From Deferribacterales bacterium (GTDB lineage Bacteria; Chrysiogenota; Deferribacteres; Deferribacterales; Geovibrionaceae): a stretch of 64,000 nucleotides of DNA. The translations under genes and the position numbers were made by a program. The notes below the pieces were generated by a model, which saw only the letters and a program-made list of their open reading frames with translations, was not told where the DNA came from and did not search any database. The stretch spans positions 142,769 to 206,768 of the forward strand of contig JBFWJS010000005.1 of NCBI GenBank assembly GCA_050253075.1, in the 5' to 3' direction. Below are positions 18,539 through 42,426 of this stretch, one piece after another. Position 1 is the first letter of the stretch; each line of letters starts with the position of its first letter.

Positions 18539-18553
18539 ATCTATCTCCTTTCA

Positions 18554-19954: not shown

Positions 19955-20387
19955 GCATTATCGCTTTGGCATCCTCTACGCTCAGGTTATCCAGCTCACT
20001 CATAAGGTCGGCTATATTACCGTCAGCAGATTCGTCTTTGAGGAATTCGTCGGGGGATTTGCCTATGCAGATGTCCTTATAGTTTTTCACTGTTTTCGAA
20101 TGCAGTTCCACATCACGCAGATTCTCACACTCGTTGAGGAGTACATCCGCCTTTTCCAGCCCTGCCATTGTGCTGTTGCATATGGCATCCAGCATCTTCA
20201 CCCGATGATTTTTCAGCCTTCGGATTGTCTTATCCGTTTCGGGGCGTTTCCATTTTTCGGCATCGGCTCTGTTCTTCACCGTCTCTGTTTTTATGCCGTA
20301 TTCCTCTGACAGCTCGGACAGGTCATATACACCGTCCTCGTATTCACTGCGCATGGATGTCCATGTTTCCTTCGTTATTCTGCCCAT
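19938..20387 (-). CDS. Probable terminase small subunit
   Basis: N-terminal HTH (W..MRSEYEDG..LSELSEEYGI..TVKNRA..EKW), 149 aa, overlaps terL start. Confidence 0.75.
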   Translation of the reverse strand: MGRITKETWTSMRSEYEDGVYDLSELSEEYGIKTETVKNRADAEKWKRPETDKTIRRLKNHRVKMLDAICNSTMAGLEKADVLLNECENLRDVELHSKTVKNYKDICIGKSPDEFLKDESADGNIADLMSELDNLSVEDAKAIMHEAKQ

Positions 20388-20411: not shown

Positions 20412-20465
20412 GGATTCTACGCAGAAATTTGAATTAATATGTTTAAACACGATAGACTTAGAAAC
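20412..20465 (-). promoter_or_regulatory. Putative activator-dependent late promoter of packaging operon
   Basis: Minus strand GTTTC-N14-TTAAACATAT-N17-TAGAATCC; same layout at 30260-30313. Confidence 0.7.
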
Positions 20466-21639: not shown

Positions 21640-21645
21640 GTGCTT

Positions 21646-22536
21646 ATGTATCTGTGCTTCGACATAGGCGGGACAAACATCAAATCCTGTCTGACAGACG
21701 AAAACGGCAAATGCCTCGATAAGATATCTATACACACACCGAAGGATTACGGCGATATCCTCTCGATACTCATATCCTCTGCCGAACGTATAAGCGACTT
21801 CAAAGCCTGTGCTGTAGCCGTACCGGGGACATGCTCGCCTTCATCGGGCGAGGTGCTCTTTGCTCCGAACCTGACAGCACTGAACGGCAGAAATATCAAG
21901 AACGACCTCGAAAAGGCTCTGAACAAGCCGGTATTCATAGAAAACGATGCAAACCTCGCCGCTCTAGGCGAATACTACTTCATTGAGAAAGATAAGGTGA
22001 AGAACATGATATTCCTCACCATAGGCACAGGGCTCGGAGGCGGAGCAGTGCTGAACGGAGAACTGCTCACATCAGACATCTCCCTCTTTGAAGCGGGGCA
22101 CATAAACCTCATCCCCGACGGACGCCTCTGCGGATGCGGTAAAAAGGGATGCCTCGAAACATACGCCAGCATCGGCGGGATAATGAAGACATATAAAGAA
22201 CTCTCCGCAAGGGGTGAGGCAGACAATGTGAACCAGATATACACCGCTGCCAAAAACGGCGACAGGGCAGCACAGCTCACCTTTGAAGTTTTCGGCGGAC
22301 AGCTCGGCATAGGCATGGCTAGCCTCGTGAACATACTGGTCCCGCAGAAGATAAAGATAGGCGGAGGCATATCCGAGATGGCAGACGCCTTCCTCCATCA
22401 CACCATGAAGATCTTTTCGAAAAACATATATCCCGCTTATAAACAACGTGTTTCCATAGAGCTCTCCGCTTTGAAAAACGAGGCAGGGCTCAAAGGGTGC
22501 ACAGCCCTCTCCATCACTAATCTTTCGTCAAAATAA
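21646..22536 (+). CDS. ROK family sugar kinase (glucokinase-like)
   Basis: FDIGGTNIK, ENDANLAALGE, TIGTGLGG, EAGH, CGCGKKGCLE. Confidence 0.9.
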   Translation: MYLCFDIGGTNIKSCLTDENGKCLDKISIHTPKDYGDILSILISSAERISDFKACAVAVPGTCSPSSGEVLFAPNLTALNGRNIKNDLEKALNKPVFIENDANLAALGEYYFIEKDKVKNMIFLTIGTGLGGGAVLNGELLTSDISLFEAGHINLIPDGRLCGCGKKGCLETYASIGGIMKTYKELSARGEADNVNQIYTAAKNGDRAAQLTFEVFGGQLGIGMASLVNILVPQKIKIGGGISEMADAFLHHTMKIFSKNIYPAYKQRVSIELSALKNEAGLKGCTALSITNLSSK

Positions 22537-24578: not shown

Positions 24579-25769
24579 ATGGGTTTTTTCAGCATATTTA
24601 AAAAGAAGAAAGACGAGGTAGCCGAGCAGGAAGAGCAGGTTATCGAAAATGATATAGAAACCGAAGAGGAAGGCGAAGAGCCCGAAGCTGTCGAGGTGCA
24701 GGCGGAAGAACCTGCCGCAGTGGAAGAAGCTACAGACGAAGAGCCTGAAGATGATGAATCCGAGGACGAATCTGAGGACGAAGATGAAGAGGAAGAGCAG
24801 TCCGAAGCTGTAAAGCAGGACTATGCCGAGAAGCCTGCCGTGAAGCAGGGCTTCTTTAAAAGGCTGAAAAAGGGTCTCTCCAAAACATCCGGCAAGCTGG
24901 TCGGCGGGATGGAGAGCATCTTCACAGGGAAAAAGAACATCGACGAAGACCTCCTAGAAGAGCTGGAAGAGCTGTTCATCACATCCGATGTGGGCGTCCC
25001 CACCACAATGAAGATCATAGACAACGTACGCAGCGAGCTTTCCCGCAAGGCTCTGAAAGACCCACAGGAGCTCAAGGCCGAGCTTAAAAAACAGATCAAA
25101 AATATTCTCGATATACCGAACGACCTGAACACCACCGAAGATAAGCCATACGTGATAATGGTGCTCGGCGTGAACGGCGCAGGAAAGACCACAAGCATCG
25201 CAAAGATGGCTAAACGCTTTAAAGAGCAGGGACTTTCCACATGTCTCGCCGCAGGGGACACATTCCGTGCTGCCGCCATAGACCAGCTGTGCGTATGGGC
25301 AGACAGGGTGAAAGTACCCGTGGTGAAACAGTCCGAAGGGAGCGACAGCGCCGCTGTCATATTCGACGCTATACAGTCCTGCAGATCAAAGGGTATACAG
25401 GTACTCATTGCGGATACTGCGGGAAGACTGCATAATAAATTTAACCTGATGAAAGAGATGGAAAAGATAGTCCGCATATGTAAGCGGGAGCTGCCTGATG
25501 CGCCGCACGAGATACTCCTTGTGCTGGATGCTACCAGCGGACAGAACGCCCTCTCTCAGGCACAGAAATTCCACGAAAGCGTGGGCATCACAGGGCTGGT
25601 ACTCACAAAGCTGGACGGCACAGCAAAGGGCGGTGCGGTCATCGGCATCGTGGACGAGCTTCAGATACCTGTGAAATTCATAGGTTTCGGTGAAGGGATA
25701 GACGACATGAAGCCTTTCGATGCGGAAGACTTCGTCAATGCCCTCTTTGACAACGACACGGAGAACTGA
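24579..25769 (+). CDS. ftsY: Signal recognition particle receptor FtsY
   Basis: Acidic N-terminus, GVNGAGKTTSIAK, DTFRAAA, DTAGR, TKLDGTAKGG. Confidence 0.96.
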   Translation: MGFFSIFKKKKDEVAEQEEQVIENDIETEEEGEEPEAVEVQAEEPAAVEEATDEEPEDDESEDESEDEDEEEEQSEAVKQDYAEKPAVKQGFFKRLKKGLSKTSGKLVGGMESIFTGKKNIDEDLLEELEELFITSDVGVPTTMKIIDNVRSELSRKALKDPQELKAELKKQIKNILDIPNDLNTTEDKPYVIMVLGVNGAGKTTSIAKMAKRFKEQGLSTCLAAGDTFRAAAIDQLCVWADRVKVPVVKQSEGSDSAAVIFDAIQSCRSKGIQVLIADTAGRLHNKFNLMKEMEKIVRICKRELPDAPHEILLVLDATSGQNALSQAQKFHESVGITGLVLTKLDGTAKGGAVIGIVDELQIPVKFIGFGEGIDDMKPFDAEDFVNALFDNDTEN

Positions 25770-25776
25770 TCATAAC

Positions 25777-26115
25777 ATGCGCTTCCTATTTATTTTAATT
25801 GCTCTGGCATGCTTAATGCCTAGCCAAGCCCCCGCACAGGAGAATATCCGCGGGATATTCTTTGAAAACGATTCACCGCACATGCTCGGCGTACGCCTTA
25901 TCAACAGATACAGCAGAGTGGAGGATCACTATCTTTTCGACCCGAACAGCAAAGAGCACGTGGACACAAAGGTCGAAACATTCACACTCTCTGCACAGCT
26001 GATAACACCCAGCTATCAGATAGACTGCTGTGAATGGACACAGATACACAGCGGCGACACCGTCACCATAGAGTATCTGCCCGACCGCGACAGATGCTGG
26101 TGTAAGATAAAATAA
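25777..26115 (+). CDS. Small exported hypothetical protein
   Basis: MRFLFILIALACL..APA signal-peptide-like N-terminus; four Cys in C-terminal half. Confidence 0.6.
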   Translation: MRFLFILIALACLMPSQAPAQENIRGIFFENDSPHMLGVRLINRYSRVEDHYLFDPNSKEHVDTKVETFTLSAQLITPSYQIDCCEWTQIHSGDTVTIEYLPDRDRCWCKIK

Positions 26116-26367
26116 TCAGTCTATATTCATACAGCTCCGCTCCTGAAGGAACTCCTCAAGGCTCTTTTTCGGCACACGCCATCTGCCGTTTCCGTCTATG
26201 CTGGTGTTCCATGCGATGAGCTTTGCGCTTTTTATCCATCTGCGTACCGTGATGTGACTGACCTGAAGTATCTTCGCCACCTGATATATGGTCAGGTTGC
26301 TCCCGGGCATTGATTCCACCTGTCTGCTTATACTATCCTCATTCCATACTTTGCACGGAGCCGACAT
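26116..26367 (-). CDS. Excisionase/MerR-like helix-turn-helix DNA-binding protein
   Basis: LTIYQVAKILQVSHITVRRWIKSAKLIA...GRWRVPKKSLEEFL; GGAGG RBS before ATG 26367. Confidence 0.85.
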   Translation of the reverse strand: MSAPCKVWNEDSISRQVESMPGSNLTIYQVAKILQVSHITVRRWIKSAKLIAWNTSIDGNGRWRVPKKSLEEFLQERSCMNID

Positions 26368-26433
26368 ACCGCACCTCCAAATAACATAATTTATTTGTAC
26401 ATAAATACACAATATGCATGTATTTTTCAACAC

Positions 26434-26464
26434 ATATTTTCTGTTTGTTTTTCACAGAATATAT
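26434..26464. promoter_or_regulatory. Inverted repeat (putative operator) between divergent HTH genes
   Basis: ATATTTTCTGT-N9-ACAGAATATAT. Confidence 0.45.
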
Positions 26465-26479
26465 CTGTATATATTATAT

Positions 26480-26839
26480 ATGGGTGTAGGACACAGATTA
26501 AAAGAGCTCCGCAGAGAGCTGAAGATCAGTCAGAAAGAACTAGGAAATCTGCTGAATGTCGCACAGCAGGTGGTCAGTTATTATGAAAAAAGCGGTAATA
26601 TAGATGCGTCAAAACTGTCCATCATCTCTGAAAAATACAGCATAGATATCAGATACTTCTTCGAAGACAAACCTTTAAACTCTTACAGAGGCACAAACCT
26701 TCAGCTTAATTCCTCTTCAGACTTTATAATCCCCGCCGGATGGGACGACATACTCCATGAAATGGCGGAGATAGAATACGGCAAGGTGCGGATAATAGAA
26801 TCTGTTGTCAGAACATTGATTAAAGAATTTAAGAATTAA
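26480..26839 (+). CDS. XRE/cI-like HTH transcriptional regulator
   Basis: MGVGHRLKELRRELKISQKELGNLLNVAQQVVSYYEKSG; no RBS before ATG 26480 (possibly leaderless). Confidence 0.85.
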   Translation: MGVGHRLKELRRELKISQKELGNLLNVAQQVVSYYEKSGNIDASKLSIISEKYSIDIRYFFEDKPLNSYRGTNLQLNSSSDFIIPAGWDDILHEMAEIEYGKVRIIESVVRTLIKEFKN

Positions 26840-26872
26840 CACTTTAAATTTCATACGGGGGAAAACCGGCTG

Positions 26873-28981
26873 ATGGATATTAGCGGCGAAAACGCCCCAT
26901 TTATTTTACGTTTTTCTAAATACATGTATCGAACAAACCCGAGAATAACAAGAGGAGGACCGCCCAGAACAGCCTAAGGCCAGCCTCTGAATATAGATAA
27001 AGCCGTAGCAGGCATACGAAATGCGCATACAGCATACTGCCGTTTCGACTTTAATAAAGACCTCCCACTTTACTCACTGCTGACCTTGAAAAAAGGCTCA
27101 CTCTCAAAGTCGAACAGATACCACTTCCTGAAAACCGCAGATATAAAGCTGACGGGCAGTTTGTCCCCTGAGGACCTCATCTTTGCGCTAAAGGACGATG
27201 CAGATATCTCCAGATTTGAAAACATACTGCGCTACAGTCGAAACATAAACTTCCGAAAGTCTCTGACCCATATGTCAGACATAAGAGCCCTACTGCCGGA
27301 GGATAAGCTGAAAAACTCAGTTACCGAAGGCGACATAGTAATCCAGCTGTTTAATAACGACAACTACGGCAAACTACTCCACTTTCTCAGAGACGGGCTG
27401 AATATAAGAGCAGGCGACATCTTTTCCGTAGGCAGTCTGAACATCATAAAAGCAAATATAAACGACCTGTCTAAGCTGGAAACTCTAGCATCACACTCTC
27501 TGATAAGGTCTGTGGAAAGCGCTCACAGCATCCATCTGGAAGAGCATTATATAAGGCACGCTCCGCTGCCGCTGAACTGTGTGAAAGAACGAGCCCTTCA
27601 AAAAGCATATCCCAAGGCCGCCCTGATAGACTCAGGCGTGGCATCTGACTCCCTGCTGAAAGAGTGGGAGATATCCACGGAAAGCTACATCCCTGATGAA
27701 AAGCGAAATCCAGCCCACGGCACTTTTGTCTGCGGGCGAATGCTTCAGGAAGGGGAAGAGTTCGGCGGGATACTGTACCTGAACGCTGAAATGATGCCTT
27801 CGGACGGAATTTTATCCATCAGCGATTTCTACAGAAACATGACAGACATCCTGCAGAAATACTCAAAGACCATAAAAGTTTATAACATCTCCATGGGTAC
27901 ATCTGCTCTGCTCCGAGACGAATTTTCCTACTCCGCATACATACTGGACACACTGCAGAAGGAATATGACGTGCTCTTCATAATATCCGCAGGCAACTGT
28001 GCACCTGACGGGGAGGCTCCGAGGTCACTCACTGCACCTGCCGAAAGCGTACACTCCGTCAGCGTCGGTTCCGTGGCGCACACAGACACAAATATCCAGA
28101 AGAAGCACACCCCATCCCTTTTCACAAGGCACGGCCCGGCACCGCTCGGATTCATAAAGCCCGACATCGCCGCATACGGAGGGGCTCATGCTGAGCATTT
28201 CGGCAGGCTGAAACCTGTGGGAGTATTCAGCATCGGCGTGCAGAACGAGCTGGCAGAAGACATCGGAACCTCCCACGCCGTCCCTATGGTCACATCAAAA
28301 GCGGCAAAGCTGTATCACCAATACAGCCATGCATTTAAAAGCCCCGACATAACAAAAACATTGCTGATACACGATGCATTCCTAAAAAAAAGCTCCAAAG
28401 AGCCCGACATATACTGCGGATACGGCATATCTGCCGATGGAGACAATGACGAAAACCATGTAACATACATCCATCAGGGGCTGGTAAAGCCTGAGCAGAT
28501 AGTAGAACTGCCCGAGATACCTATCCCACCCGATATGATAAAGGACGGAGCCGTCTATGGAGGCATCGTCCTGACACTTGTTTATAAGACACACGTGGAC
28601 ATAGCTTTCCCTCATTACTACTGCATGACAATGCTGGATATATCACTCGGGTATTACGACGGGGGGAAGTGGATATCTGTGATGACGGCGAAAGATACGG
28701 CGGGGCTCCCCAAAGGAAAAGATGCACAGGAGCTCTTTAAATGGCAGCCTGTAAAAGTGTTCAGCAGGGTATTTAAAAATAAGAAAATGCCCGACAAGCT
28801 ATTACTAAGAATAATACCGTCTAAAAGAGATTTTTATGACAAAATGGAAGACATTTCATACTCATTCGCTATATCTTTTGTGAGCAAAGAGGAAAACCTG
28901 TTGAAAGGTATTCTCGACAGACCGTCTGATTTTTCACACATTCTCGAATCTGCCCATGACTTGTGGAAAACATGTGGATAA
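26873..28981 (+). CDS. S8 subtilisin-like serine peptidase; in-frame TAA at 26975-26977 (possible pseudogene; open frame from TTG 27086)
   Basis: Catalytic motifs IDSG, HGTFV, SAGN, GTSHAVP; ATG 26873 is in frame, with one stop at codon 35. Confidence 0.78.
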
Positions 28982-30259: not shown

Positions 30260-30313
30260 GTTTCAGGTTTAACCGCCCTTAAACATATCCATTATTTCAT
30301 TCCTGTACCATCC
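30260..30313 (+). promoter_or_regulatory. Putative activator-dependent late promoter of head-tail operon
   Basis: GTTTC-N14-TTAAACATAT-N17-TACCATCC; same layout as 20412-20465. Confidence 0.7.
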
Positions 30314-30343: not shown

Positions 30344-31036
30344 ATGAAACTGGAACTGGCGAAAACCGGAAACCATAACGGCATCACCATAACAGAAGAA
30401 GACCTGAGAGACATGGCAGCGACCTTTACAGGCGATGTGCCCGTCACAATAGGTCACGAGGCCGACGACTCCATGCCCGCATACGGCTGGGTCACCGCTC
30501 TAGAAGTGTCCGAAGACGGACAGACACTCACAGGCGAACTGGAGCTGAACGAAGAGCTCCAGCAGGCTATCGCAGAGGGACGTTACAAGAACTGGAGCAT
30601 AGGCGCAGGCAGAAACGCAGACGAGCAGATGTATCTGCACCATGTGGCGTTCCTCGGCGCTGTCCCCCCGATGATAAAGGGGCTGAAGCTCATCGAGATG
30701 GGCGACAGGTCAGACATCGTCACATTCGCCATAAACGGCGGATGCTCACTCACCCTCTCCGATGCGGAGCTCTCCGAATACGCATCACTGCGTAAGGAAA
30801 AGAAGAGCGCACTCATCAAAAAGCTCTCCGACGCATCAGCGGGGAAGATCCCCTTCGGCAAGCGTGAGGAGCTCATCAGATTCGCAGACTCTCAGCTCTC
30901 CGCAGGCGGCGAAGAGATAGTCTCCATGCTGGCGGAGATATTCGAAAGCGTGAAACACCCAGTGAGAGAAGGGATATCCCAAGCCATCAGAACAAAAAAC
31001 GCTGAAACGTCCGTAAACGTATTCAGCAAAATCTAG
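30344..31036 (+). CDS. Phage prohead protease/scaffold, Mu gp32(I)-like
   Basis: PVTIGH..SMPAYGWV..L, GRYKNWSIG, YLHHVAFLGAVPP.IKGL; AAGGAGG RBS. Confidence 0.8.
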   Translation: MKLELAKTGNHNGITITEEDLRDMAATFTGDVPVTIGHEADDSMPAYGWVTALEVSEDGQTLTGELELNEELQQAIAEGRYKNWSIGAGRNADEQMYLHHVAFLGAVPPMIKGLKLIEMGDRSDIVTFAINGGCSLTLSDAELSEYASLRKEKKSALIKKLSDASAGKIPFGKREELIRFADSQLSAGGEEIVSMLAEIFESVKHPVREGISQAIRTKNAETSVNVFSKI

Positions 31037-31045
31037 GAGGAATAA

Positions 31046-31408
31046 ATGGCAACAGTAAACGGCGTTATCGGTCAGCAGACCATCACAGACAAATCTGTCA
31101 TCGACGACAGACACCCCGCAGTGATCCGCTTTATGCAGTTCAAAGCAGACAACGGCATCATCGGAGCAGGCGAGATACTCGCACTGGATTCTAACGGCGA
31201 CGTGGTCTCATACGACCCTGCATCAGGCGGAACAGAGGCATCACCTATCGGCGTGTGCTCATCACAGACAGACACGGCGAAAGATACCGCAGGCGGAGTC
31301 ATCATCCATGGAACAGTAGTAGGCGCAAGCCTTCTCACCCTCGGCGTAAAAGCTGTCTCCGCAGAGATAGAAGCCCTCGAGGCAAACACACTCATCTGGT
31401 CATTCTAG
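31046..31408 (+). CDS. Head decoration protein (lambda gpD-like)
   Basis: 120 aa, GEILAL..G..VSYDPASGGTEASPIGV pattern; between protease and capsid genes. Confidence 0.65.
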   Translation: MATVNGVIGQQTITDKSVIDDRHPAVIRFMQFKADNGIIGAGEILALDSNGDVVSYDPASGGTEASPIGVCSSQTDTAKDTAGGVIIHGTVVGASLLTLGVKAVSAEIEALEANTLIWSF

Positions 31409-31420
31409 GAGGATACATAA

Positions 31421-32404
31421 ATGATACAGCTTGATCTCAGCAGATATTTCACAACAGACTCACTCATCAAAGCACTCACAAACATGCCGGAGCTTAAATC
31501 CCCCGTCATGGACAGCATCTACACGGCGGACAAACGCAGAAACCACCCTCTGCCGACAGTCTCCGTCAGCGACCTCCAACAGGCGGTTAAGAACATAGCT
31601 ATCACAAAAAGAGGCGGAGAACCTGTGCCTGTCTATGAAGAAAGCATGAACATCACACACATCGAACCTCAGCCGTTCAGACCTTCCGAAAGACTCAACG
31701 GAGTGGACGTGAATAACCTCAAGCTCCTCGACGAGACAGGCGTGGAGCTCCTCGTAAATAACAAGATAGACAGACTCCGCCGCATCGTCAGAGCATCCAC
31801 AGAGGCTATGGCGGCACAGTCGCTCACAGGCTCTATCGCATACCCTATGGCTATGGACGGCGGATACGGCACATACAGCGTGGACTTCGGCTCCACACTC
31901 AGCCACTCCGTCGGCACTGCATGGACAGACTCGGGCATCACACTCGACGCCGTCCTCGCAGACCTCATCAGCATGGAGGCAAACATCCAGGCTGAGACAC
32001 ACTACGGCTCCGACATCCGCTTCTGGGCGGGTCAGGACGCCTTCATGGCTCTGGCAAAGATCGTCCAGGACGTCAACAACACAGGCATCACGGGCATGAT
32101 AGACGCAAGAACCATCAACATAGCAGGATTCAGGGTAGAGCTTCAGAACAGCTCATACACAGACCTCGCCACAGGCTCGCAGACAAAGGTCGTGGATACT
32201 TCAAAGGTGATGGCGTTCGCCGCCGATGCACCTTTCGAGCTGGTCTACTCTGTCATAGACGACCTCGACAGCAACCTTACTGCCATGCCTTTCTTCGTAA
32301 AGAGCGTGAAAGACCCGAGGTCCTCAAGCATCGAGATCATCGCAGAGAGCAAACCGCTCCCTGTTCCGTTCACAAAGGGTATTTGCTGGGCAACAGCCGT
32401 ATAA
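31421..32404 (+). CDS. Major capsid protein (lambda gpE-like family)
   Basis: 327 aa; LRRIVRASTEAMAAQSLTG.I, VDFG, C-terminal IIAESKPLPVP typical of gpE-type capsids; strong RBS. Confidence 0.82.
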   Translation: MIQLDLSRYFTTDSLIKALTNMPELKSPVMDSIYTADKRRNHPLPTVSVSDLQQAVKNIAITKRGGEPVPVYEESMNITHIEPQPFRPSERLNGVDVNNLKLLDETGVELLVNNKIDRLRRIVRASTEAMAAQSLTGSIAYPMAMDGGYGTYSVDFGSTLSHSVGTAWTDSGITLDAVLADLISMEANIQAETHYGSDIRFWAGQDAFMALAKIVQDVNNTGITGMIDARTINIAGFRVELQNSSYTDLATGSQTKVVDTSKVMAFAADAPFELVYSVIDDLDSNLTAMPFFVKSVKDPRSSSIEIIAESKPLPVPFTKGICWATAV

Positions 32405-32420
32405 GGCTCGACTCAAAAAT

Positions 32421-32449
32421 CGGCAGGGGTGCTCTGATGCGCCCCGCCG
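32421..32449 (+). other. GC-rich stem-loop after capsid gene (no U tract)
   Basis: CGGCAGGGGTGC-TCTGAT-GCGCCCCGCCG. Confidence 0.5.
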
Positions 32450-32470
32450 CCCTATCAAAAGAGGTAAACC

Positions 32471-32827
32471 ATGCTGATAGACATATATGAGCTTCAGGAA
32501 ATGATACAGACAGAGGACTACGACGCCATATGCCGTGGTGACGATGCCGTTGCGGAAGAATCACTGGAATCTGCCCGTGCGTATGTAGGACTGGCCGCTG
32601 AGAAATTCGGCATTGAATACGACGAGGAAGACCCAGCCATAAGGCTCGCCGTGAAAAAGTGGGCTCTGGCGCAGATGTACATCTTCGCAGCGGAGTGGGA
32701 AACAGCCCAAAGGTATAAGGACGAATGCAACGAAGTGCTCGCACCACTTGCCCCCGCATCCGAACAGGGGGGAAGAGTCTACTCTTCGACCGTTTCGGGG
32801 AGCACCTCGTGGAAAGGATATTACTGA
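32471..32827 (+). CDS. Probable head-tail connector (Mu gp36/DUF1320-like)
   Basis: 118 aa helical protein right after capsid gene; AQRYKDEC..L pattern. Confidence 0.6.
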   Translation: MLIDIYELQEMIQTEDYDAICRGDDAVAEESLESARAYVGLAAEKFGIEYDEEDPAIRLAVKKWALAQMYIFAAEWETAQRYKDECNEVLAPLAPASEQGGRVYSSTVSGSTSWKGYY

Positions 32828-33198
32828 TGAAGACAGCTCAGGAGATAAAGCAGGCGATAGCCGACTCGCTGAATACCTGCGGCGTGTTCGACTCTGTGCT
32901 GACACCGTCCGACAACCGAAAGGATGCGACCATAATGCGTGAGCCGTCTGCTGCGGTCTATTACAGCGGATGCGTGATAAGGGACGATAACGGCGTGCAG
33001 GTGACAGAATACGCATACATCATACGCATGAAGTTCCTGAAAATAGGCGTAAACGAAACAGCCGACGACATAGAACTCGCCGTTAACGCCCTGAAAGAGC
33101 TGGAGCCCGCATCCCTCGCCCAGTCGGGCAAAACAGACACAAACAGCAGATCGGCATCATACACCATAGACATAACATTTGCGGGGTGCAGGGGATGA
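32827..33198 (+). CDS. Probable neck/tail-completion protein
   Basis: TGATG coupling; PSAAVYYSG, C-terminal YTIDITF; position in operon. Confidence 0.5.
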   Translation: MKTAQEIKQAIADSLNTCGVFDSVLTPSDNRKDATIMREPSAAVYYSGCVIRDDNGVQVTEYAYIIRMKFLKIGVNETADDIELAVNALKELEPASLAQSGKTDTNSRSASYTIDITFAGCRG

Positions 33199-33563
33199 TA
33201 CGCATATCAGACATAACACTCCCAAAGTCCGCAGTGTGGGCAAACGAGATATCAAACAGCACACATAAAACCGAGCGGACAGCATGCCCCTACGGGACAG
33301 AAGTCATCTTTGCAGACATACAGGATGCTGAGATAGACATATACATACCAAAGATATCTGGCGAGCTGACCCGTGCGGACGTGCAGAGGCTGAAAGCTCT
33401 AGCAGACGGCACAAACGAGATAAGCATAAACATAAACGGCACAGACAAAACGTGCGTCTTCAGGCATTCGGACACCGCACTCGACCTGCACCCGATAAGC
33501 CCGAAACAGACACAAACGCACACCGACAGCTACTACGGATATATAAGGCTTCTGGAGGTTTAA
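33195..33563 (+). CDS. Putative distal-tail/baseplate-proximal protein
   Basis: ATGA coupling; I.DITLP..AVW.NE and LTRADVQRLKALA resemble siphophage proteins encoded right after tape measure genes (recall, unverified). Confidence 0.5.
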   Translation: MIRISDITLPKSAVWANEISNSTHKTERTACPYGTEVIFADIQDAEIDIYIPKISGELTRADVQRLKALADGTNEISININGTDKTCVFRHSDTALDLHPISPKQTQTHTDSYYGYIRLLEV

Positions 33564-34532
33564 ATGAATCAGACAGACATAAAAATACTGAAAGCAGAAA
33601 CGATAACAGACGACAGCATAAACGGCGGGAGGGTCAGCTTCGCCTCTGAGGTGATCAGCGGAGTGAAGTTTAACCTGTTCCCCAGAGTGACATCATCCGA
33701 AAGGGACAGTGGAGTGACAAGATACCGTAAGGCCTTCATCGGCAACATGAACCCGCTGGGCGAGACGGCATACGGCGCATCTGTCGCCATCAGTACCCCC
33801 GGCAACGGCGAAGACAGGTTCTATATAAAGCAGGGAACACACTCAGACACACAGGACGACCTGACATCGGACGGATGGACAGGATGCGGAACGCTGGCAT
33901 ACACGGCATCCGCTGGGGACACATCCATACAGGTAATTTTTAAATCCAGCGACTACGCCATCCCCGAGGGCGCTATGCTCATAATCAAAGATGATCTGGA
34001 AAACACCGTGAACATACGCACATCGGCATCGGCACCGTGCGCAGAGTGGAACGGCACAACGGCGACAATACAGCTCGAATCCCAGCTCCCAGACGGATTC
34101 TCTTCATACAGCACACACGTGGGCGTGATGATAGAAACGGGCGACCTAGCTCCTGAGATGACTGACATATCGGTATCATCCTCATCAGGCACATTCGACG
34201 AGAGCATCGTAACCCTCTATAACGGCGGAACAATAGCGGACACATACTCAGTCACATTCGACAGTGCATTCAGCTTTGCCGTGTCGGGTGCGGAAACAGG
34301 CGCACTGGCATCGGGCACCACAGGCTCCGCATATGAGCCGTCTAACCCGCAGACAAACAAACCTTATTTCAGCATACCTTCTGAAAGCTGGTCGGGGATA
34401 TTCGAAGCTGGCGACACTGTGACATTCACCACTGCGCCTTCGTGTGCTGGCTTCTGGATAAAAGAGGCTGTCCCCGCAGGGTGCGCACACGAGCCGAACA
34501 ACAGCTTCAATCTGGACTGGATGATAGATTAG
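33564..34532 (+). CDS. Putative tail-tip protein
   Basis: DIKILKAETITD...GGR...EVISGV.FNLFPRVTSSER..GVTRYRKAF resembles a conserved prophage tail protein N-terminus; Ser/Thr/Gly-rich. Confidence 0.6.
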   Translation: MNQTDIKILKAETITDDSINGGRVSFASEVISGVKFNLFPRVTSSERDSGVTRYRKAFIGNMNPLGETAYGASVAISTPGNGEDRFYIKQGTHSDTQDDLTSDGWTGCGTLAYTASAGDTSIQVIFKSSDYAIPEGAMLIIKDDLENTVNIRTSASAPCAEWNGTTATIQLESQLPDGFSSYSTHVGVMIETGDLAPEMTDISVSSSSGTFDESIVTLYNGGTIADTYSVTFDSAFSFAVSGAETGALASGTTGSAYEPSNPQTNKPYFSIPSESWSGIFEAGDTVTFTTAPSCAGFWIKEAVPAGCAHEPNNSFNLDWMID

Positions 34533-34539
34533 GTGACAC

Positions 34540-35769
34540 ATGGCTAACCTTACATACGCGAATTTCGCACTATCAAAGCTGACACAGGCACTCTCTGCAT
34601 CGGGCACAGCCGTACACATAGCAGACGACGCCCTCTTCCCCGACGGATACTTCACCGCCGTGATATGGAGCGCAGGGGTCGGCTCACCTCTGGAGGATGC
34701 AGACAGCGAGCTGCTGACGCTGATGCGCACATCCGCAGGAGTTTTCGAAGCGGTGCGGGGAGATGAAGGGACAACTGCCCGTGACTGGGCGCAGGATTCC
34801 CTGATAGCAAACGTGGTGACGGCGGAAACTATGGAATACATATACTCCGCAGCTGGGAACACGGCATCCGTCACCGTGATGTCCGACACCGCATACACCA
34901 TGGAAAGGGACGACACAAAGATGCTGTGTACATTCACCCCCGCAGAGGGGGAAAAGTCTGTCACCCTCCCCGCATCGGATGTGTGTGAAGGGCTGACATA
35001 TACGATACTCAACAGAGGCATATATCCGCATCAGACACTAAAGCTATATCCGAACGCATCCGACGGATATGCACATACTGCCGAAGGATACATAAGCATA
35101 CCTTCGGGCGGGTCTGCACAGCTTATACACAGCGATGACGGATGGGTCGTCATATCAGCAAACGCCGACAGCTACAAAAACCTGCGCATAATAGACGAAG
35201 ACATGCCGAGCGTATCATTCGGCGAGGGCACACTGTATGCAGACACATCGGCAGAGGATATAAACATCACCCTCCCCTCGGCAAAGGAATACTGCGGTGT
35301 CCCCCTCAAGATATATAAATTCTCCGACGACGCAAACAAGGTGATCATCAGCGGATACGAAGGGGACAGCACCCCCGTAGAGCTGACGGAGCAGTGGCAG
35401 TCCGCCGTGTTTGTCATGAGCCAGAGCGGGACAGTATATATGACAGACGGTCCGCAGGCTTCAGCACCTTCATCAGGGACATCCGAGGGGGACGTGATCT
35501 TCCTGTCTGAAAACAGGTTCCTCGACGGCAGCGAACGCTTCATCTTCGTGACGACAGGGTCAGTGGGGATACACTCATACCTGCCCGAGCCGAGCGCACA
35601 CACGGGAAAGATGGTAACGGTGAAGAAGATAGACTCTGGCTCAGGCGTTGCCATCATCTTCCCCATAGACAGCACAATAGACGGTGCAGCAGACTTGGTG
35701 GAGCTCACACAGCAGTGGCAGTACGCCACATTTGCCTGCGGCGGAGACGGCTGGTACAGGGTAGGCTGA
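34540..35769 (+). CDS. Putative tail fibre protein with three internal repeats
   Basis: VRGDEGTTARDW motif; repeats TLPASDVCEG / TLPSAKEYCG / YLPEPSAHTG and VELTEQWQ / VELTQQWQ. Confidence 0.6.
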   Translation: MANLTYANFALSKLTQALSASGTAVHIADDALFPDGYFTAVIWSAGVGSPLEDADSELLTLMRTSAGVFEAVRGDEGTTARDWAQDSLIANVVTAETMEYIYSAAGNTASVTVMSDTAYTMERDDTKMLCTFTPAEGEKSVTLPASDVCEGLTYTILNRGIYPHQTLKLYPNASDGYAHTAEGYISIPSGGSAQLIHSDDGWVVISANADSYKNLRIIDEDMPSVSFGEGTLYADTSAEDINITLPSAKEYCGVPLKIYKFSDDANKVIISGYEGDSTPVELTEQWQSAVFVMSQSGTVYMTDGPQASAPSSGTSEGDVIFLSENRFLDGSERFIFVTTGSVGIHSYLPEPSAHTGKMVTVKKIDSGSGVAIIFPIDSTIDGAADLVELTQQWQYATFACGGDGWYRVG

Positions 35770-35770
35770 T

Positions 35771-37411
35771 ATGTTTATACAATGCGGAGCACCGCTTTTA
35801 AACATATCTCTGTCCTCACAGTCAGGGCTGAACGGCAGTCTGAGCATCACAGCCCCCTTTGTGATAGACGGCAGTGTGGAGCTTGCCTCCGCACTGTCCA
35901 TTTCGGACAGCCTGAACCTGCCTATACCGGAGGGGCTGAACGGCGAGCTGTTGATATACGCACTCTTTGCCGAGGTATACAGAGGCTCGGATAATATCCC
36001 CGTCAGTCTGTCTGCTATGGATGAAGCCACTGTCGCCTGTAATACGGTGAACGCACTCGCCCTTGATGGAGCCGTATCTATATCCTCAGAGCTGGCAGAA
36101 GCCTTTGAGGGCAGTCTGACATCCTTAAACACCATAGGCGAGTATGCACTCAGAGCATCAACTGACATCAGGATACCGTTCGGGCTGTATGACACATCAG
36201 GAAGCTGTGAAATACGCCTTCCCCAAACCACAGCCCACGTCATAAAGGACGAGCTGGAAGTATATGCAGACGGCATCGACATCACAAAGCTGTTAAGGAG
36301 CGCAGAGATAAAACTCTTCGGCGGAAATGAACCGATCAGGCTGAAAGCATTGCTGAAACCTCTGAAAAATACGCCGAAGTACATCGACATCTTCATCAAC
36401 GGTGAGGCATACGCCTTCCGCATTGATACGGCGGAGCATTCCTCTGAGCAGTGCACCCTGACTGGCAGTATGCCGAGCGGATACGCATCCGTGACAGCAG
36501 GTATAAAGCGTGCATCGGCCCTGTGTGCCGATGATACTGACATAATATTCTCTGCTGCGGATTTCGTCACTCAGGGGATAGAGGCAGACGGCACAGACCA
36601 CGGCATAGCAGTGATGCTGGCTGAGATGTGCGGAGCAAAAGCCCGCCAGATGAAGGACGGCAGGAGCATGGTATACGATGCGAGTTCATGCGCAGTATAC
36701 ACGCCGAAGCATATCCTTAGCTGGGCAAAGACTGCCCCCGAGAGGTTCAAAGGGGTAGTTGAAGTGATATACGGCAAAAACGGCGACGACCACATAACTC
36801 TGGAGCCATCATCCAGAAAAGCCGTGAAAGGCATCAGCCTGAAAGTATACGGTAAGAGCGGCATCCCCGTGAGAGCCGACGGCGGGAAACTGAAGCTGAT
36901 AAACAGCGGAAACAGAGAGACCGTGACTGAGGACATAATATTCGAAAACGGATACGGCAGACTGTCTAAACCCTGCATGAAGATGCTCTCCGCAGGCTTC
37001 ACCGCCGACGGAAAGAAGGTCTATGCAGATGCATACTGCATCACGGCAGGCATCAGGTACGAGACCACATACGACCTGTACACCGTATCCGCAGAATCAG
37101 ACAGTGTGACACTGTGCGCCTATCTGGATAATCGGGTGGTCATAATGAAAGGGAGCGGCAGCATAACGAGCATCACAGCCGAAAACATATGTGACCACGC
37201 CACGGCTTATAAACTGGCGAAGTCGAAGCTGGCAGAGGCATCGGACAAGCTGACCCTGGTGACCACACACTCGAACATACTGAACACGACAGGCGCACTG
37301 AAAGTAAAAACACCATACGGCACAGGCGAGGCAATCAGCGCATCCATAAACATAAGCACCGCTCCGCTCAAGATAACAGACAAACTGGAGGTACAGATAT
37401 GGCAAAGGTAA
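35771..37411 (+). CDS. Putative tail hub/baseplate protein
   Basis: 546 aa, tightly packed in virion operon. Confidence 0.5.
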   Translation: MFIQCGAPLLNISLSSQSGLNGSLSITAPFVIDGSVELASALSISDSLNLPIPEGLNGELLIYALFAEVYRGSDNIPVSLSAMDEATVACNTVNALALDGAVSISSELAEAFEGSLTSLNTIGEYALRASTDIRIPFGLYDTSGSCEIRLPQTTAHVIKDELEVYADGIDITKLLRSAEIKLFGGNEPIRLKALLKPLKNTPKYIDIFINGEAYAFRIDTAEHSSEQCTLTGSMPSGYASVTAGIKRASALCADDTDIIFSAADFVTQGIEADGTDHGIAVMLAEMCGAKARQMKDGRSMVYDASSCAVYTPKHILSWAKTAPERFKGVVEVIYGKNGDDHITLEPSSRKAVKGISLKVYGKSGIPVRADGGKLKLINSGNRETVTEDIIFENGYGRLSKPCMKMLSAGFTADGKKVYADAYCITAGIRYETTYDLYTVSAESDSVTLCAYLDNRVVIMKGSGSITSITAENICDHATAYKLAKSKLAEASDKLTLVTTHSNILNTTGALKVKTPYGTGEAISASINISTAPLKITDKLEVQIWQR

Positions 37412-37896
37412 CAGTGAGTTTTGTCACCGCAGATGATGAAAGCAAGATGACCATAGAGAGCGACCCCGACAGAAACAAAGACTATACGGGCAGGACAAAG
37501 ACAAAATTCCGCTACGGCGACACGGCGTACTTCAGAGTATACAGCCATGAGGCCGAAAAGATATCCGCATCCGCATCCGACGGCGAGCTCACCGACATGG
37601 GGATATACACAGGCACTATAGCAGACGAGGTGCTCCCGTTCATCACGGAACAGACGGCAGACACAGAAAAGCCCGTTAAAAAGATAAGCGGATATGAATG
37701 GCTGGGGAACAGCCTCGGCAGTGTGACGGCATACGACAGCTACAGCGTGCAGGCATCATCCGCCCCCACAGAGTCTAAGATCGCCGCACTCTCTCTCACA
37801 TACCAGACTACATACAGGCTCTTCGGGCTGACACTGGCGAAGCGGGATATATCCGAATACCCCGTCATAGTATATGTGAGGTCGGGCGATGTCTGA
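37399..37896 (+). CDS. Hypothetical virion-operon protein
   Basis: GGAGG RBS, overlaps both neighbours. Confidence 0.6.
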   Translation: MAKVTVSFVTADDESKMTIESDPDRNKDYTGRTKTKFRYGDTAYFRVYSHEAEKISASASDGELTDMGIYTGTIADEVLPFITEQTADTEKPVKKISGYEWLGNSLGSVTAYDSYSVQASSAPTESKIAALSLTYQTTYRLFGLTLAKRDISEYPVIVYVRSGDV

Positions 37897-38614
37897 GAGC
37901 AAGATAACATTCACCTCGGCTGATACGGGGCTGTCCAGCTTTAAGTTCGTACTGGAGGCAGCGGAGAACGGGGGTAAGACGATATTTGCCCCCGACGAGC
38001 GGGCAAGGCTGAAACTCTACCCCGGCGGACAGAACCCGCAGATAAGCACATCGTGGGGCTCGGCGGAGGTATACATGAGAGGAGTGAAGCAGACCTTCAC
38101 CGAATACATCGCCTTCCGCTCTGCCGACTCTGGGAATACGACATACTTCATAGAAAAGCTGATATCCGCATCGTGGGAAGGGATAGGCGAAGGTAGACCG
38201 CTCATATACGGCAGCAGGATAATCCTCCCCGCCGTCACCACAGGCGTGCTGAAGGTTCAGTATGAGACCAGCTATGACCTGATAGACGTCACATGCTCTC
38301 ACCCTACATATATGCTGGTCAGCGCTGAGAGTGAGGCACTTGCAGGAGATTTCCTCGTGGACTTCAGCGACGGATACCTGACGGATGTGTATGACAAAGA
38401 CGTGGTGATGACCGTGCGTGACGCCTGTACAAAGGAGACCCTGCCGAATGCGTCGGTATATATAAACGGGAGCTTCAGCGGGCGCACGGACAATGCGGGA
38501 CTTATCAGGCTGGGCAGTATGAAATCGGGCACTTACGCCCTGCGCATCACCCGTGACGGATACACTGACACGGACAAAGACACCATCGGCAACGATTACT
38601 TTACGGTGGAATAA
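37889..38614 (+). CDS. Virion-operon protein with C-terminal PEGA/carboxypeptidase-regulatory-like domain
   Basis: LPNASVYING..SGRTDNAG...SGTYALRITRDGY. Confidence 0.6.
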   Translation: MSESKITFTSADTGLSSFKFVLEAAENGGKTIFAPDERARLKLYPGGQNPQISTSWGSAEVYMRGVKQTFTEYIAFRSADSGNTTYFIEKLISASWEGIGEGRPLIYGSRIILPAVTTGVLKVQYETSYDLIDVTCSHPTYMLVSAESEALAGDFLVDFSDGYLTDVYDKDVVMTVRDACTKETLPNASVYINGSFSGRTDNAGLIRLGSMKSGTYALRITRDGYTDTDKDTIGNDYFTVE

Positions 38615-39618
38615 TGGCACTGGGCAGCGAAAGATACCTAACCCCCAACATATATATATGCAAAGACAGATACTACCCTAAGGGGATCTGCTACGGCAAT
38701 AAATGCTCATCCACAGGGCTGACCGTGACGGAAAAGGACATAACCGAAACCGTCAGCATGTATGTCGGGGGCAGAAAGATAGCAGACATCACAAGCATCA
38801 CGGCGAGGCAGATAAACATAAGGGTGAACCTATCCCCCGCAGGCGGTACGGCCAGAAGGATAACGGCATACTTACTGCCCAACGGCTCGGGTGAGGAATG
38901 TATGCTGGCATCACCACCATGCAGGGAGATAGACACCGACAGCGGCGTGAAATGGTATGAGGACGGCGACTTCATCACTGCGGAACTGCCTCTGGCGGAG
39001 CACTGCGCCGTAAACAAATTCCAGACCACATACAGCAGCGGAACCATAAGGACAGACACGCCAACATCCATAGGCGAGGCAGACGGAGAGAGCGTCACCC
39101 TCACCTTTGACGACGGAGGGAAGACCCTGCATAAGACATCGATATCGGAGAAATACCTTATCCCCGGGAAGGAAACTGCAGTGCACTACGGACTGCGCGG
39201 TGTGGACGGGTATCACTACCTAGCCATCATAGACTTTCAGACGGAGATATTCACATCCGCCGAATTTGCAGGATGCGGACTCGTGAAAAGGGAAAAGGTT
39301 TATAAGAATCCATCCCGACCGGAGCTGGACTACACATATGAATATGTCCCATATGCAGGTGGCATCGGCAAGACCATACGCAAGGAATGGAGCTACGACA
39401 CAAACTACCGCATATGTGTCGCATTCCGAGGAAAACACTACTGGATAAAGAGCACAGACCACGCACCGTATGAGATAGGTCAGAGGGTATTCATAATGAA
39501 GGGCACCTCCGACATGCCCCTTATCCCCGACGAATCTTCCAGCAGGAACGCATCGGACACCCTGTCTGAATACGATGACGTGGCTGTGCCCGAGCATTTT
39601 TACAGCGGGGTGAACTGA
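38614..39618 (+). CDS. Hypothetical virion-operon protein
   Basis: 334 aa, TAATG coupling. Confidence 0.6.
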   Translation: MALGSERYLTPNIYICKDRYYPKGICYGNKCSSTGLTVTEKDITETVSMYVGGRKIADITSITARQINIRVNLSPAGGTARRITAYLLPNGSGEECMLASPPCREIDTDSGVKWYEDGDFITAELPLAEHCAVNKFQTTYSSGTIRTDTPTSIGEADGESVTLTFDDGGKTLHKTSISEKYLIPGKETAVHYGLRGVDGYHYLAIIDFQTEIFTSAEFAGCGLVKREKVYKNPSRPELDYTYEYVPYAGGIGKTIRKEWSYDTNYRICVAFRGKHYWIKSTDHAPYEIGQRVFIMKGTSDMPLIPDESSSRNASDTLSEYDDVAVPEHFYSGVN

Positions 39619-40643
39619 TGGACATGATACACAGCACCAGCATAAAAGACCCATTGAGAAACATCGGCTACAGGACAGGCATCGTCCTCGGGACAAACCG
39701 TGAGGCTGTCACGGCAACAGTGCTGACGGGGGGCAGTGTGCTCACCCTCCCCGTCGTGTATAACTGCCCCGCTGGATACAGCTCCGCAGATGCATTTGCC
39801 GTGGGAGACGATGCCGTTATCAGGCTGTATAAGGGCGAGCCTTCCCATGTGGTAGGATTCCCCCGTACTTCATGGCCGTGCGTGCGCACACCTGCACTGG
39901 TCTTTGAAGCGGAAGAGCCGTACACATACGACACAGAAGCCTTCATACAGCACCCTGCGAAGTTTTACGACAGGTATAAACCGCTGAAGGAATACGAGTG
40001 CGAGGTTGACCACACTTTTTATCTGAACAAATCAAATGCCGCCACAGACGACGCCTTTGTTTCCATAGAGACAGACTGGTACGACGGCGTGTGGAACAGG
40101 TATACAGAGTTCTACTACGGAGCGGAGCTTATCTATACCACGCATAATAATGAAACGGCGGCGCACGTCTTCAACGGCACCAGATCGAATGTATTCGGCA
40201 GATATATAAATCCCCGCACGGGCTGGGGGTGCATGATCTATCAGATAAACACCTTCACCGATTGGAGGCCGAGGGCATCAGGCAGGGTGGACTTCAACTA
40301 TTACCTATACACCTCCACAGGCATAAACATGCCCATAGCATCGGCATATGCAGAGGTGGACAGTGCATCCGCACAGACATACGGACCGGTGATAGGCGAG
40401 GCCTCCTGCACCATGCTTCTGGACAGCTATGCAGGGAACATTATGAAAGCAGACATCACCCTTTGCAGCGGAGGGATGTTCACCTCAGACGGAAGTATAA
40501 ACACCGCCGAGGCAGGCGAAGAGATGAAACACAGCATATGCATCATAACCGAAGGCATGGAAGAACCCTTCACAGAGATATACGGCATAAACACAAAAGA
40601 AATGCCGAGCGAGAACTACAGAATATACGTAAAAAGAAGATAG
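39618..40643 (+). CDS. Hypothetical virion-operon protein (possible OB-fold spike-like N-terminus)
   Basis: TGATG coupling; GIVLG...TATV...LPVVYNCP...FAVGDDAVI...PSHVVGF. Confidence 0.55.
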   Translation: MDMIHSTSIKDPLRNIGYRTGIVLGTNREAVTATVLTGGSVLTLPVVYNCPAGYSSADAFAVGDDAVIRLYKGEPSHVVGFPRTSWPCVRTPALVFEAEEPYTYDTEAFIQHPAKFYDRYKPLKEYECEVDHTFYLNKSNAATDDAFVSIETDWYDGVWNRYTEFYYGAELIYTTHNNETAAHVFNGTRSNVFGRYINPRTGWGCMIYQINTFTDWRPRASGRVDFNYYLYTSTGINMPIASAYAEVDSASAQTYGPVIGEASCTMLLDSYAGNIMKADITLCSGGMFTSDGSINTAEAGEEMKHSICIITEGMEEPFTEIYGINTKEMPSENYRIYVKRR

Positions 40644-40656
40644 AAGGAGAACGGGA

Positions 40657-41871
40657 ATGAGCTATAAAAGCACAAAAGAGATACTGAACGCCGTTTTCGA
40701 CAGCAGTGACGGCACTCTGAAAACAACCTATAAGACCGAGGGCGAGGTCTTTAACCTTGTCTATGACGAGGATGCCAACGCTCTGCGGGTGAACATCGAA
40801 GGATTCACCGGAGGCACAGGGGGGATAATCGACGGCGAGGCAGCCACATTCGCAGACCTGCCCGCCGCATCAGAACACGCAGGTGATATATATATTGTAC
40901 ACGCCACCACTGGCGTGATGCTGATAAACCGCAGACAGGCGGGGATGTACCGCTCGGACGGCACTTCATGGAGCCTGCTCGACGTGAACCTGTCTGCCGA
41001 CAAAGTATACTATACGGGCACACTGACATCAGAAAATGTGCTGGACGCACTGGAAGAGCTTAATACCGCAAAAGCAGAGATGATATATTCCAGCGTCACG
41101 CTGAATGTCGCCAATTCAGGCGGAGACTTTGCAAGCCTGAACGATGCGCTGGCTTATCTGAATAATTACCGCCTCGCTCCGAATGTGACAGTCACCATCC
41201 AGATAGCAGACGGTACTTATGCCGTTACAAACACAATCAATCCCAATCACCCTGATTTATCTAATATAAGGATAACGGGAAACACCACCGACCATACAAA
41301 AGTGATACTGGACTGCTCAGATATAAGCGTCGGTATAAGTCTCACTGATGGCGTTGTATGCTATATGGGGGGCTTCACAATCATAGGCTGCACAACTGGT
41401 CTTATGGTAGGAAATGGTGCCACTGCTAGATTATTATATACATTTGAGTGCAGTTACTGCTCCACAGGGGTATATGCGCTATACCACGGCTGTATAATAG
41501 CCTCAGCACTTATAGCTAGTAATAACACTTTGAGAGGTGTGTTCCTTTTAAGATCTTCAAATATGACTGTTACAGGTAATTGTATAATTGATAACAACGG
41601 TAGTGACGGCATAAAACTTCAGGAAAACTCCAAAGCGAATCTTCGCGGTTCTAGCATAGAAAACGGTAGTATCTCAAATAATGGCGGCAGCGGAGTCTAC
41701 TGTGTATCACAAGGAGAAGTGTTTACATACAATATGACCATAGACGGTAACGGCAGCTATGACATAATTGCAAACGATCTTTCTAACGTATTTGCCCAAA
41801 GTTGTGTTTACAGCACACTATCCCCTAATCTCAGAACAGTAGGAAATGACAACTCATATATTTTAGCGTAG
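40657..41871 (+). CDS. Tail spike/receptor-binding protein with right-handed beta-helix
   Basis: ATFADLPAAS..AGDIYIV, GDFASLNDAL..IQIADGTY, NNG..G repeats. Confidence 0.7.
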   Translation: MSYKSTKEILNAVFDSSDGTLKTTYKTEGEVFNLVYDEDANALRVNIEGFTGGTGGIIDGEAATFADLPAASEHAGDIYIVHATTGVMLINRRQAGMYRSDGTSWSLLDVNLSADKVYYTGTLTSENVLDALEELNTAKAEMIYSSVTLNVANSGGDFASLNDALAYLNNYRLAPNVTVTIQIADGTYAVTNTINPNHPDLSNIRITGNTTDHTKVILDCSDISVGISLTDGVVCYMGGFTIIGCTTGLMVGNGATARLLYTFECSYCSTGVYALYHGCIIASALIASNNTLRGVFLLRSSNMTVTGNCIIDNNGSDGIKLQENSKANLRGSSIENGSISNNGGSGVYCVSQGEVFTYNMTIDGNGSYDIIANDLSNVFAQSCVYSTLSPNLRTVGNDNSYILA

Positions 41872-41878
41872 GTGATTC

Positions 41879-42193
41879 ATGAAAGTATTTATAAAAAATG
41901 ACAAAATTATCGCAACACACGGAAACGAACAAAACGTCATATACAATGAAGCAGTATGTATATACTGCTCCGAAGGAACAAGAGCTGAATTTGACAAGCC
42001 CTTCAGCGAACAGGGGATACAGCCCCTTTCAAATGCCGAGGTAAGGAGCATAAGGTATAAGCTGGAGTCGGACCCTCTCTTTGAAGCGGCACGAAATGAA
42101 GCGATATACGACGGCACTGAACCCGACTATACGAAAGCCATAGCAAAGGCCGCAGAGATAAAAGCCGACCTGCCCATAGACGGGGAGGCATGA
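41879..42193 (+). CDS. Putative tail fibre assembly chaperone
   Basis: Follows spike gene; RSIRYKLESDPLF...AEIKADLP. Confidence 0.55.
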   Translation: MKVFIKNDKIIATHGNEQNVIYNEAVCIYCSEGTRAEFDKPFSEQGIQPLSNAEVRSIRYKLESDPLFEAARNEAIYDGTEPDYTKAIAKAAEIKADLPIDGEA

Positions 42194-42426
42194 TGACCAT
42201 AGAGATATCAGACATCATACAGACACTGGGGAGCATAGCGAGCCTTGTGCTCATCCCCATATGGCGCTCCATCAATGCACTGCGGGAAAGCCAGAACAAA
42301 ACGAACATAATCCTGGCTCGTGACTACGTGAGCAAAAAGGAGTGCCGGGAGAGGCACGGACAGCTCCACAGCGACATGATAAGGATACACGCACGCATAG
42401 ACGAGACAACGGATAAAAAGTATTAA
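42190..42426 (+). CDS. Small holin-like membrane protein
   Basis: 78 aa, one N-terminal hydrophobic helix then charged tail; last gene of virion operon. Confidence 0.45.
   Translation: MMTIEISDIIQTLGSIASLVLIPIWRSINALRESQNKTNIILARDYVSKKECRERHGQLHSDMIRIHARIDETTDKKY

Follow-up and report, generated by a model that had tools for sequence, protein, structure and literature searches.

The phage-derived head, packaging and tail-tip genes of this 64,000-nucleotide window (G000:C5:142769-206768) belong to a family-wide, vertically inherited, multi-locus system that is probably GTA-like, new and independently domesticated, and whose predicted stub-tailed particle would carry host DNA. A more specific proposal, which we find plausible and hold tentatively, is a new GTA family, within the Deferribacterales phylum, whose head would join a siphophage tail tip directly, neither tube nor tape measure coming between, which would have become podovirus-like by stepwise loss, with one genome (G004) as a living intermediate, and which would deliver DNA free of a ruler. 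On genomic evidence, the system would be classed as GTA-like and not as a long-tailed module or a Mu prophage; the stub-tailed particle is a prediction from its genes. Delivery of DNA to recipients is a further criterion for a GTA.

The head/tail-tip operon (30344-42426) has all of its genes co-oriented on the forward strand and opens with a Mu-like head maturation protease/scaffold (30344-31036; phrog_976, E 1.5e-28), a lambda D-like head decoration protein (31046-31408; phrog_49, E 2e-5, with PF02924 under the cut-off) and a major capsid protein of the lambda E family (31421-32404; PF03864, E 7e-59), for which no phage record was matched at E 1e-5. Thirteen genes, g1-g13, follow. A second operon (17432-20387) lies on the opposite strand, with host genes in between, and encodes a likely terminase small subunit (terS, 19938-20387; weak PHROG terS matches at E 4e-5 and position, with an orthologue in 16/16 genomes), the terminase large subunit (terL, 18554-19954; phrog_38, E 4e-131) and a Mu-type portal (17432-18538; PF06074, E 1.8e-86, and phrog_113), which follows terL in 15 relatives. 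The two operons are about 10 kb apart in the window, about 11.5 kb apart and on different strands in genus g1 and 29-37 kb apart in four of the five genus g2/g3 genomes, and the packaging locus is on a separate contig in G009 and in all seven genus g4 genomes. None of the system's genes in the window genome (G000) has a broken frame.

The earlier note had suggested that the proteins starting at 33195 and 33564 resemble siphophage proteins that normally follow the tape measure, and homology bore this out. In hhalign, Ralstonia phage RS138 (97.9%) and Vibrio phage PG28 (96.6%) each had, immediately behind the tape measure gene, a counterpart that matched g3 (33195-33563) from end to end, and all three fall in phrog_4408. 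Gene g4 (33564-34532), which we label tail-tip/fibre-associated, has its homologues one gene further on, in RS138 ORF48 (annotated as a tail fibre) and in the second post-tape-measure gene of PG28. A model of g3 based on a 148-sequence alignment (pLDDT 87.9) showed a tube/Dit/Hcp fold, with baseplate and tube-fold chains as its best matches (Z 9.2-8.2, rmsd 2.9-3.9) and Dit and tube chains after them. Homology and fold together predict that g3 is likely a Dit-like distal tail ring. Given its tube fold, g3 could also stack several rings, which counts against a one-ring stub, and a tube might even be functionally present if g3 polymerised into a short tube without a ruler. This would fit the matches of the model to tube, Hcp, tube-initiator and Dit chains (Z 9.2-5.8), which include tail tubes and the lambda and T1 tail-tip chains, but baseplate entries rank highest among the fold matches, the RS138 and PG28 homologues follow the tape measure, and a separate tube gene exists in both phages and in G004; we regard a tube made of g3 as unlikely.

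The genes on either side of the Dit-like ring could be assigned with differing strength. Gene g1 (32471-32827) may encode a head-tail adaptor, as suggested by its position and helical make-up; it matched no family and its comparison with the RS138 adaptor was not significant. Gene g2 (32827-33198) is tail terminator- or stopper-like, its Atlas feature neighbours being PF23818, PF06141 (gpU) and PF09646 (Mu gp37) at 0.92-0.93, a lead that carries no alignment. Downstream, g5 (34540-35769) is fibre-like from synteny and a weak phrog_8469 tail fibre match (E 0.009); it precedes g3 in five genomes and is absent from G003. A baseplate hub-like role is likely for g6 (35771-37411), from its position, from Atlas clusters at 0.95 in which 11-14% of members belong to the YqbQ family, and from a weak 246-column match to a 430-aa gene of PG28 (E 0.0015, probability 17%). 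Genes g7 and g8 (37399-38614; phrog_24905) are related tail-tip proteins and, like g4, have homologues in the PG28 tail tip. Genes g9 and g10 (38614-40643) matched no family and are conserved in synteny in 16/16 genomes; the N-terminus of g10 is, we assume, similar to a spike OB fold. The operon continues with a receptor-binding fibre with an exchangeable C-terminus and its small partner (g11 and g12, 40657-42193; beta-helix PF13229, C-termini differing in relatives) and, in genera g1 and g4, ends with a small, conserved, hydrophobic gene (g13, 42190-42426; phrog_12220, 11 genomes). In hhalign comparisons of g1, g2, g6, g9 and g10 with single RS138/PG28 proteins nothing was significant, and g3, g4 and g6 had no sequence match among solved structures. 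Residues 205-295 of g4 also matched a domain in frames of about 950 aa in genus g2/g3 genomes (L017-L020); these second matches lie in what we take to be flagellar hook loci and were set aside. A lone g4 homologue (40%) was seen among non-structural genes in an unrelated viral contig (L053:9998-10684).

The operon reads from a terminator to a distal ring, and the tube, the chaperones and the 1376-1565 aa ruler that separate the two in RS138 and PG28 are missing. As the earlier note had described, the TGA stop of g2 overlaps the start of g3 as ATGA (33195-33198, forward strand), the expected site of these genes and the site of the tube gene in G004. Three further runs, from three studies, each yielded a single contig that crosses the junction (X3, 32504-33715; X4 and X5, both 32504-33572), and because these independent contigs span it, it is not an assembly artefact. 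ATGA overlaps are frequent in phage operons, so the overlap alone is not evidence. Across the 16 genomes, the tail-terminator-like g2 abuts g3 in 11: 6 have the ATGA overlap and 5 have 1-5 bp between the two genes. In the four genomes of genus g3, a g5-type fibre gene of 218 aa stands between them, and the gap in G004 is 1411 bp. In all 16, the junction has no room for a tape measure or chaperone, and neither precedes the distal tail gene at this locus. The ORFs at 32471-42426 matched no tube, sheath, chaperone or tape-measure family in PHROGs, Pfam or NCBIfam, and helix formers, a crude measure, made up 28-38% of the operon ORFs longer than 300 aa versus 44-62% of three tape measures. The claim that the operon holds no long helical tape measure was thereby upheld, as was the claim that no Mu F/G-like gene is evident: RS138 F matched only an unrelated prophage and RS138 G matched nothing in the window genome. 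That no sheath or tube is recognisable was true of family matches but not of folds, given the tube/Dit/tube-initiator fold of the g3 model. These results support the view that tube, chaperones and tape measure have been lost between the terminator and the distal-tail gene.

A tube gene after the terminator was absent in 15 of the 16 genomes and present in G004, where the g2-g3 gap holds an intact 232-aa gene (NF052337 score 76.9 versus a cut-off of 60) that matches phrog_807, to which the RS138 and PG28 tubes belong, and is similar to the major tail protein of YSD1. A g5-type gene follows after 10 bp, so that no chaperone or ruler fits there. In the rooted SMC tree, G004 grouped with genus g3 and genus g1 with genus g4, both with a support of 1.0, and the capsid tree rooted on a related prophage agreed. 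Because G004 alone keeps a tube at the junction, the simplest history is that the tape measure and chaperones probably disappeared in the ancestor of the family and the tube afterwards, in two lineages. The G004 tube may also have been re-gained and, existing as a single copy, it may itself be drifting. The precise loss proposed in the earlier note is thus supported as a loss, with the G004 tube at the very place, but probably a stepwise one and not one recent precise deletion.

Alternatively, a locus that escaped recognition could supply tube and tape-measure genes for a normal long tail, or a co-resident prophage could lend them, given that the system is already spread over three loci and that prophages with sheath, tube and tape measure are found in G000, G004 and G008. 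The earlier suggestion that such genes sit at a third locus gained no support; the third locus that turned up was one for lysis. We searched all 16 genomes for the tube family and TIGR02675, and 6 of the 16 for PF10145. The native tube of G004 had no orthologue in the 15 other genomes, and NF052337 exceeded its cut-off in 1 of the 16. The tape-measure searches were partial and weaker: TIGR02675 matched in 0/16 but also missed the prophage tape measure of the window genome itself, and the PF10145 matches above cut-off all lay in myoviral prophages, in G000 and G004, with four further weak matches in G004, G006 and G013. Tape measures diverge fast. The complete genomes G002 and G007 had no match to either tape-measure family, the tubes, chaperones and rulers of RS138 and PG28 had no match in G000, and the genes behind the shared motif described below included no further shared tail gene in G000, G002 and G006. 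Moreover, the prophage tails are contractile and the prophages sporadic, with a Mu-like prophage capsid match in 2/16 genomes. We judge a normal long tail to be quite improbable.

Two sets of candidates were rejected in this search. Three weak phrog_807 matches and the weak NF052337 matches were not counted as orphan tubes, as they fell in 477-481 aa genes of separate prophages; from their context these genes are presumably sheath-like, and the three that were tested matched no Pfam family. The above-cut-off PF10145 matches, sitting in myoviral prophages, were likewise discarded as orphan tape measures. An apparently intact Mu-like prophage with a contractile tail was located at G000:C1:586000-619400, with a close relative in G008:C10. 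In viral and metagenome scans, the matches were confined to family members and a single unrelated phage gene, and no full-tailed close ancestor appeared.

Both operons were single-copy and syntenic in all 16 Geovibrionaceae genomes, a family of anaerobes that includes Denitrovibrio, Seleniivibrio, Geovibrio and Limisalsivibrio according to named records. L124 and L125, in which host and module genes alike carry frameshifts, were excluded from all counts. Capsid, terL and g4 each had one close copy in 16/16 family genomes and in 0/25 others of the order, and, of the 68 genomes available for the phylum, a deep g3 profile matched 16, every one from the Geovibrionaceae (0/52 others). The system genes are under purifying selection: dN/dS was 0.01-0.34 in every computable pair, with synonymous distances similar to those of host neighbours (eight chosen genome pairs, some saturated). 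The most constrained genes were capsid, terL and portal (0.02-0.08; capsid 0.02-0.07 and terL 0.04-0.08), and fibre and hub genes reached values as high as 0.34. At the genus level, the trees of head, tail-tip and packaging genes had the topology of the host tree (FastTree, by inspection), some within-genus nodes differing, and this congruence spans about 49% SMC identity.

A decaying prophage that lost its tail genes by chance would account for the broken genes seen in three genomes of genus g1. G002, a complete genome, has its g8 interrupted by an IS transposase (L021:12605-14005) and lacks g11-g12, so that it is possibly a natural inactive strain; terL of G001 has an in-frame stop; and in G003 g9 is split and g5 absent, but the host SMC gene of G003 also contains a stop, so that sequence errors are possible there. 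The presence in 16/16 genomes, the strong purifying selection, the tree congruence and the conserved shared motif all argue against decay, which we consider barely credible. Receptor-binding ends are exchanged within the species at g11/g12: the C-terminal part of g11 and g12 (41213-42075) was replaced, from about 41215, in most contigs of three wastewater runs.

We compared the probable GTA-like system with the GTA criteria stated in the available part of PMC9662315. The particle proteins are Caudoviricete-derived (capsid, portal, terminase, protease and tube-fold ring); endogenisation is complete and spread over several loci, two in 16/16 genomes and a third, for lysis, in 11/11 genomes of genera g1/g4, with host flanks; inheritance is vertical at the genus level; and the loci are dispersed over the chromosome, which bears on the criterion of not packaging the full own gene set. 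A GTA would, in addition, package mainly random DNA of its host. Of a siphophage tail module, g3 would be the distal ring by homology and fold, and g6 is a candidate hub by weak leads. A Mu-like prophage would be one contiguous genome with transposase, gpF/gpG and tail, whereas here the loci are split, F and G are missing from the locus, and no transposase or integrase was found among the scanned neighbours.

The third locus (G000:C7:63399-64036) encodes a phage lysozyme (PF00959) and a small gene, related to one inside the G004 operon, which we call holin-like on account of its size, hydrophobicity and position. The lysozyme had a close, unlinked orthologue in 11/11 genus g1/g4 genomes and, complementary to this, an M15-like lysin gene was inside the operon in 5/5 genus g2/g3 genomes. 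All three loci of the window genome lie behind a shared motif, TTAAACATAT-N15-YGTANNATCC, in which TTAAACATAT is followed after 15 bases by a TATAAT-like box. Among 5927 candidates in G000, a matrix trained on 14 sites of other genomes ranked the site upstream of terS (20412-20446, reverse strand) first, that upstream of the protease and the head/tail-tip operon (30279-30313, forward strand) second and the lysozyme site seventh. The strict pattern gave seven matches in five genomes versus none for a reversed control; five of the seven were sites used to devise the pattern and two were new, upstream of the G013 protease and the G001 lysozyme. The exact decamer was found 112-151 bp upstream of the lysozyme gene in 4/4 genus g1 genomes and within 200 bp of it in 0/7 genus g4 genomes, and the motif is degenerate in genera g2/g3. 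By itself, the decamer occurs 17-26 times per genome, mostly elsewhere, and a sigma-70 scan gave nothing above chance. From its layout, the motif is a putative activator site before a -10 box.

Several neighbouring genes are worth recording. Divergent HTH_17 and XRE HTH genes (26116-26839) with an IetS-like S8 peptidase (whole stretch 26116-28981; peptidase score 216 bits versus a cut-off of 900) adjoin the operon in genera g1/g4 and may be regulators or a defence remnant. A strongly conserved double-HTH repressor-like gene (44837-45673) is another candidate regulator; it adjoins the virion operon in three of four genus g1 genomes, and in each of the five genus g2/g3 genomes it and a paralogue are found close to the terminase and portal genes. 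A small gene of no family with a signal-peptide-like start (25720-26115) may belong to the system, since its homologue directly follows the portal in 5/5 genus g2/g3 genomes. Fic-domain and ROK genes (20500-22536) lie divergently upstream of terS in 11/11 genus g1/g4 genomes.

In the mechanism that we propose, one regulator would turn on the packaging and virion operons, plus the lysis locus in genus g1, via the shared motif, and the terminase would load chromosomal DNA into the head, since the system has no element genome of its own that replicates and could be packaged. The terminator ring g2 would sit directly on the tube-fold ring g3, which would cap the hub g6 and the fibres, for a tail a few rings long; the parts that remain would be enough to build a head filled with DNA, a neck of two rings, a single tube-fold ring, a hub and fibres. 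Particles would be released by the lysozyme or M15-like lysin with the holin-like protein. As the particle would lack a tape measure that could make a channel through the membrane, we infer that the DNA would be set free at the envelope or in the periplasm and then be taken up by the ComEC machinery of the recipient. ComEC was found in 16/16 family genomes but also in 10/14 controls and is permissive only. In RcGTA, competence genes of the recipient are reportedly needed.

The same stub-tailed particle could have a job other than gene transfer, such as a receptor decoy or competitor, an adhesin, DNA release in biofilms or killing. The fast variation of the fibre ends and the IetS-like S8 protease gene beside the operon in genera g1/g4 would suit such a role. 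However, selective constraint is strongest on terminase, portal and capsid, which indicates that DNA filling matters, and tail-only killing particles have no heads. The loss of the tape measure also removes the usual injection channel, as described in the available part of PMC11445458, and favours a non-transfer job; overall we consider one rather unlikely.

The gene-transfer reading was further set against known systems. RcGTA, BaGTA and BhGTA, as covered in the available part of PMC9662315, similarly have phage-derived head and packaging genes, several loci and vertical inheritance, but differ in phylum and gene families, which here are a lambda-E capsid, a Mu portal and an RS138/PG28-type tail tip. 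The same part gives a 49-nm tail with a tube for RcGTA and a 65-nm tail for BhGTA, and BaGTA particles are reported both as tail-less or short-tailed and as long-tailed (PMC9662315). Unlike these GTAs, the present system has lost the tube and ruler genes and kept a siphophage tail tip. The Pseudomonas phage JBD30 has, as is predicted here, a neck of two rings, adaptor and stopper, that binds the tail directly, but has 45 tube rings and a tape measure proposed as the delivery channel (available part of PMC11445458). RS138 and PG28 share the g3 and g4 homologues directly after the tape measure, g7/g8 in PG28, and the tube family seen in G004, but have a tube, chaperone(s), the long tape measure and their own replication, at identities of about 25%. 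The RcGTA-type cluster belongs to alphaproteobacteria and has tube and ruler, so that, from descriptions, the RcGTA family is set apart by host phylum and tail gene content. The Mu-like myoviral prophages of G000 (C1:586-619 kb) and G008 have a related protease, decoration protein, capsid (35%) and portal (28%), but carry transposition-region genes, gpF, sheath, tube, tape measure and baseplate in one locus and occur sporadically. We found no paper on this system in the literature on Denitrovibrio, Deferribacter, Limisalsivibrio and Geovibrionaceae GTAs or phages, subscription papers and supplements lying outside the search.

Proven independent GTA lineages are few, and the present candidate comes from a new phylum and cultured genera, with a gene list and a shared motif that points to the switch of the system. 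The siphophage tape measure is held to be necessary for tail assembly and envelope crossing; a selected system without one would show that a tail tip can be assembled on a neck and that DNA can be delivered in an alternative way. The Geovibrionaceae would then offer a natural series for tail reduction, with the tube kept in one lineage and probably lost twice.
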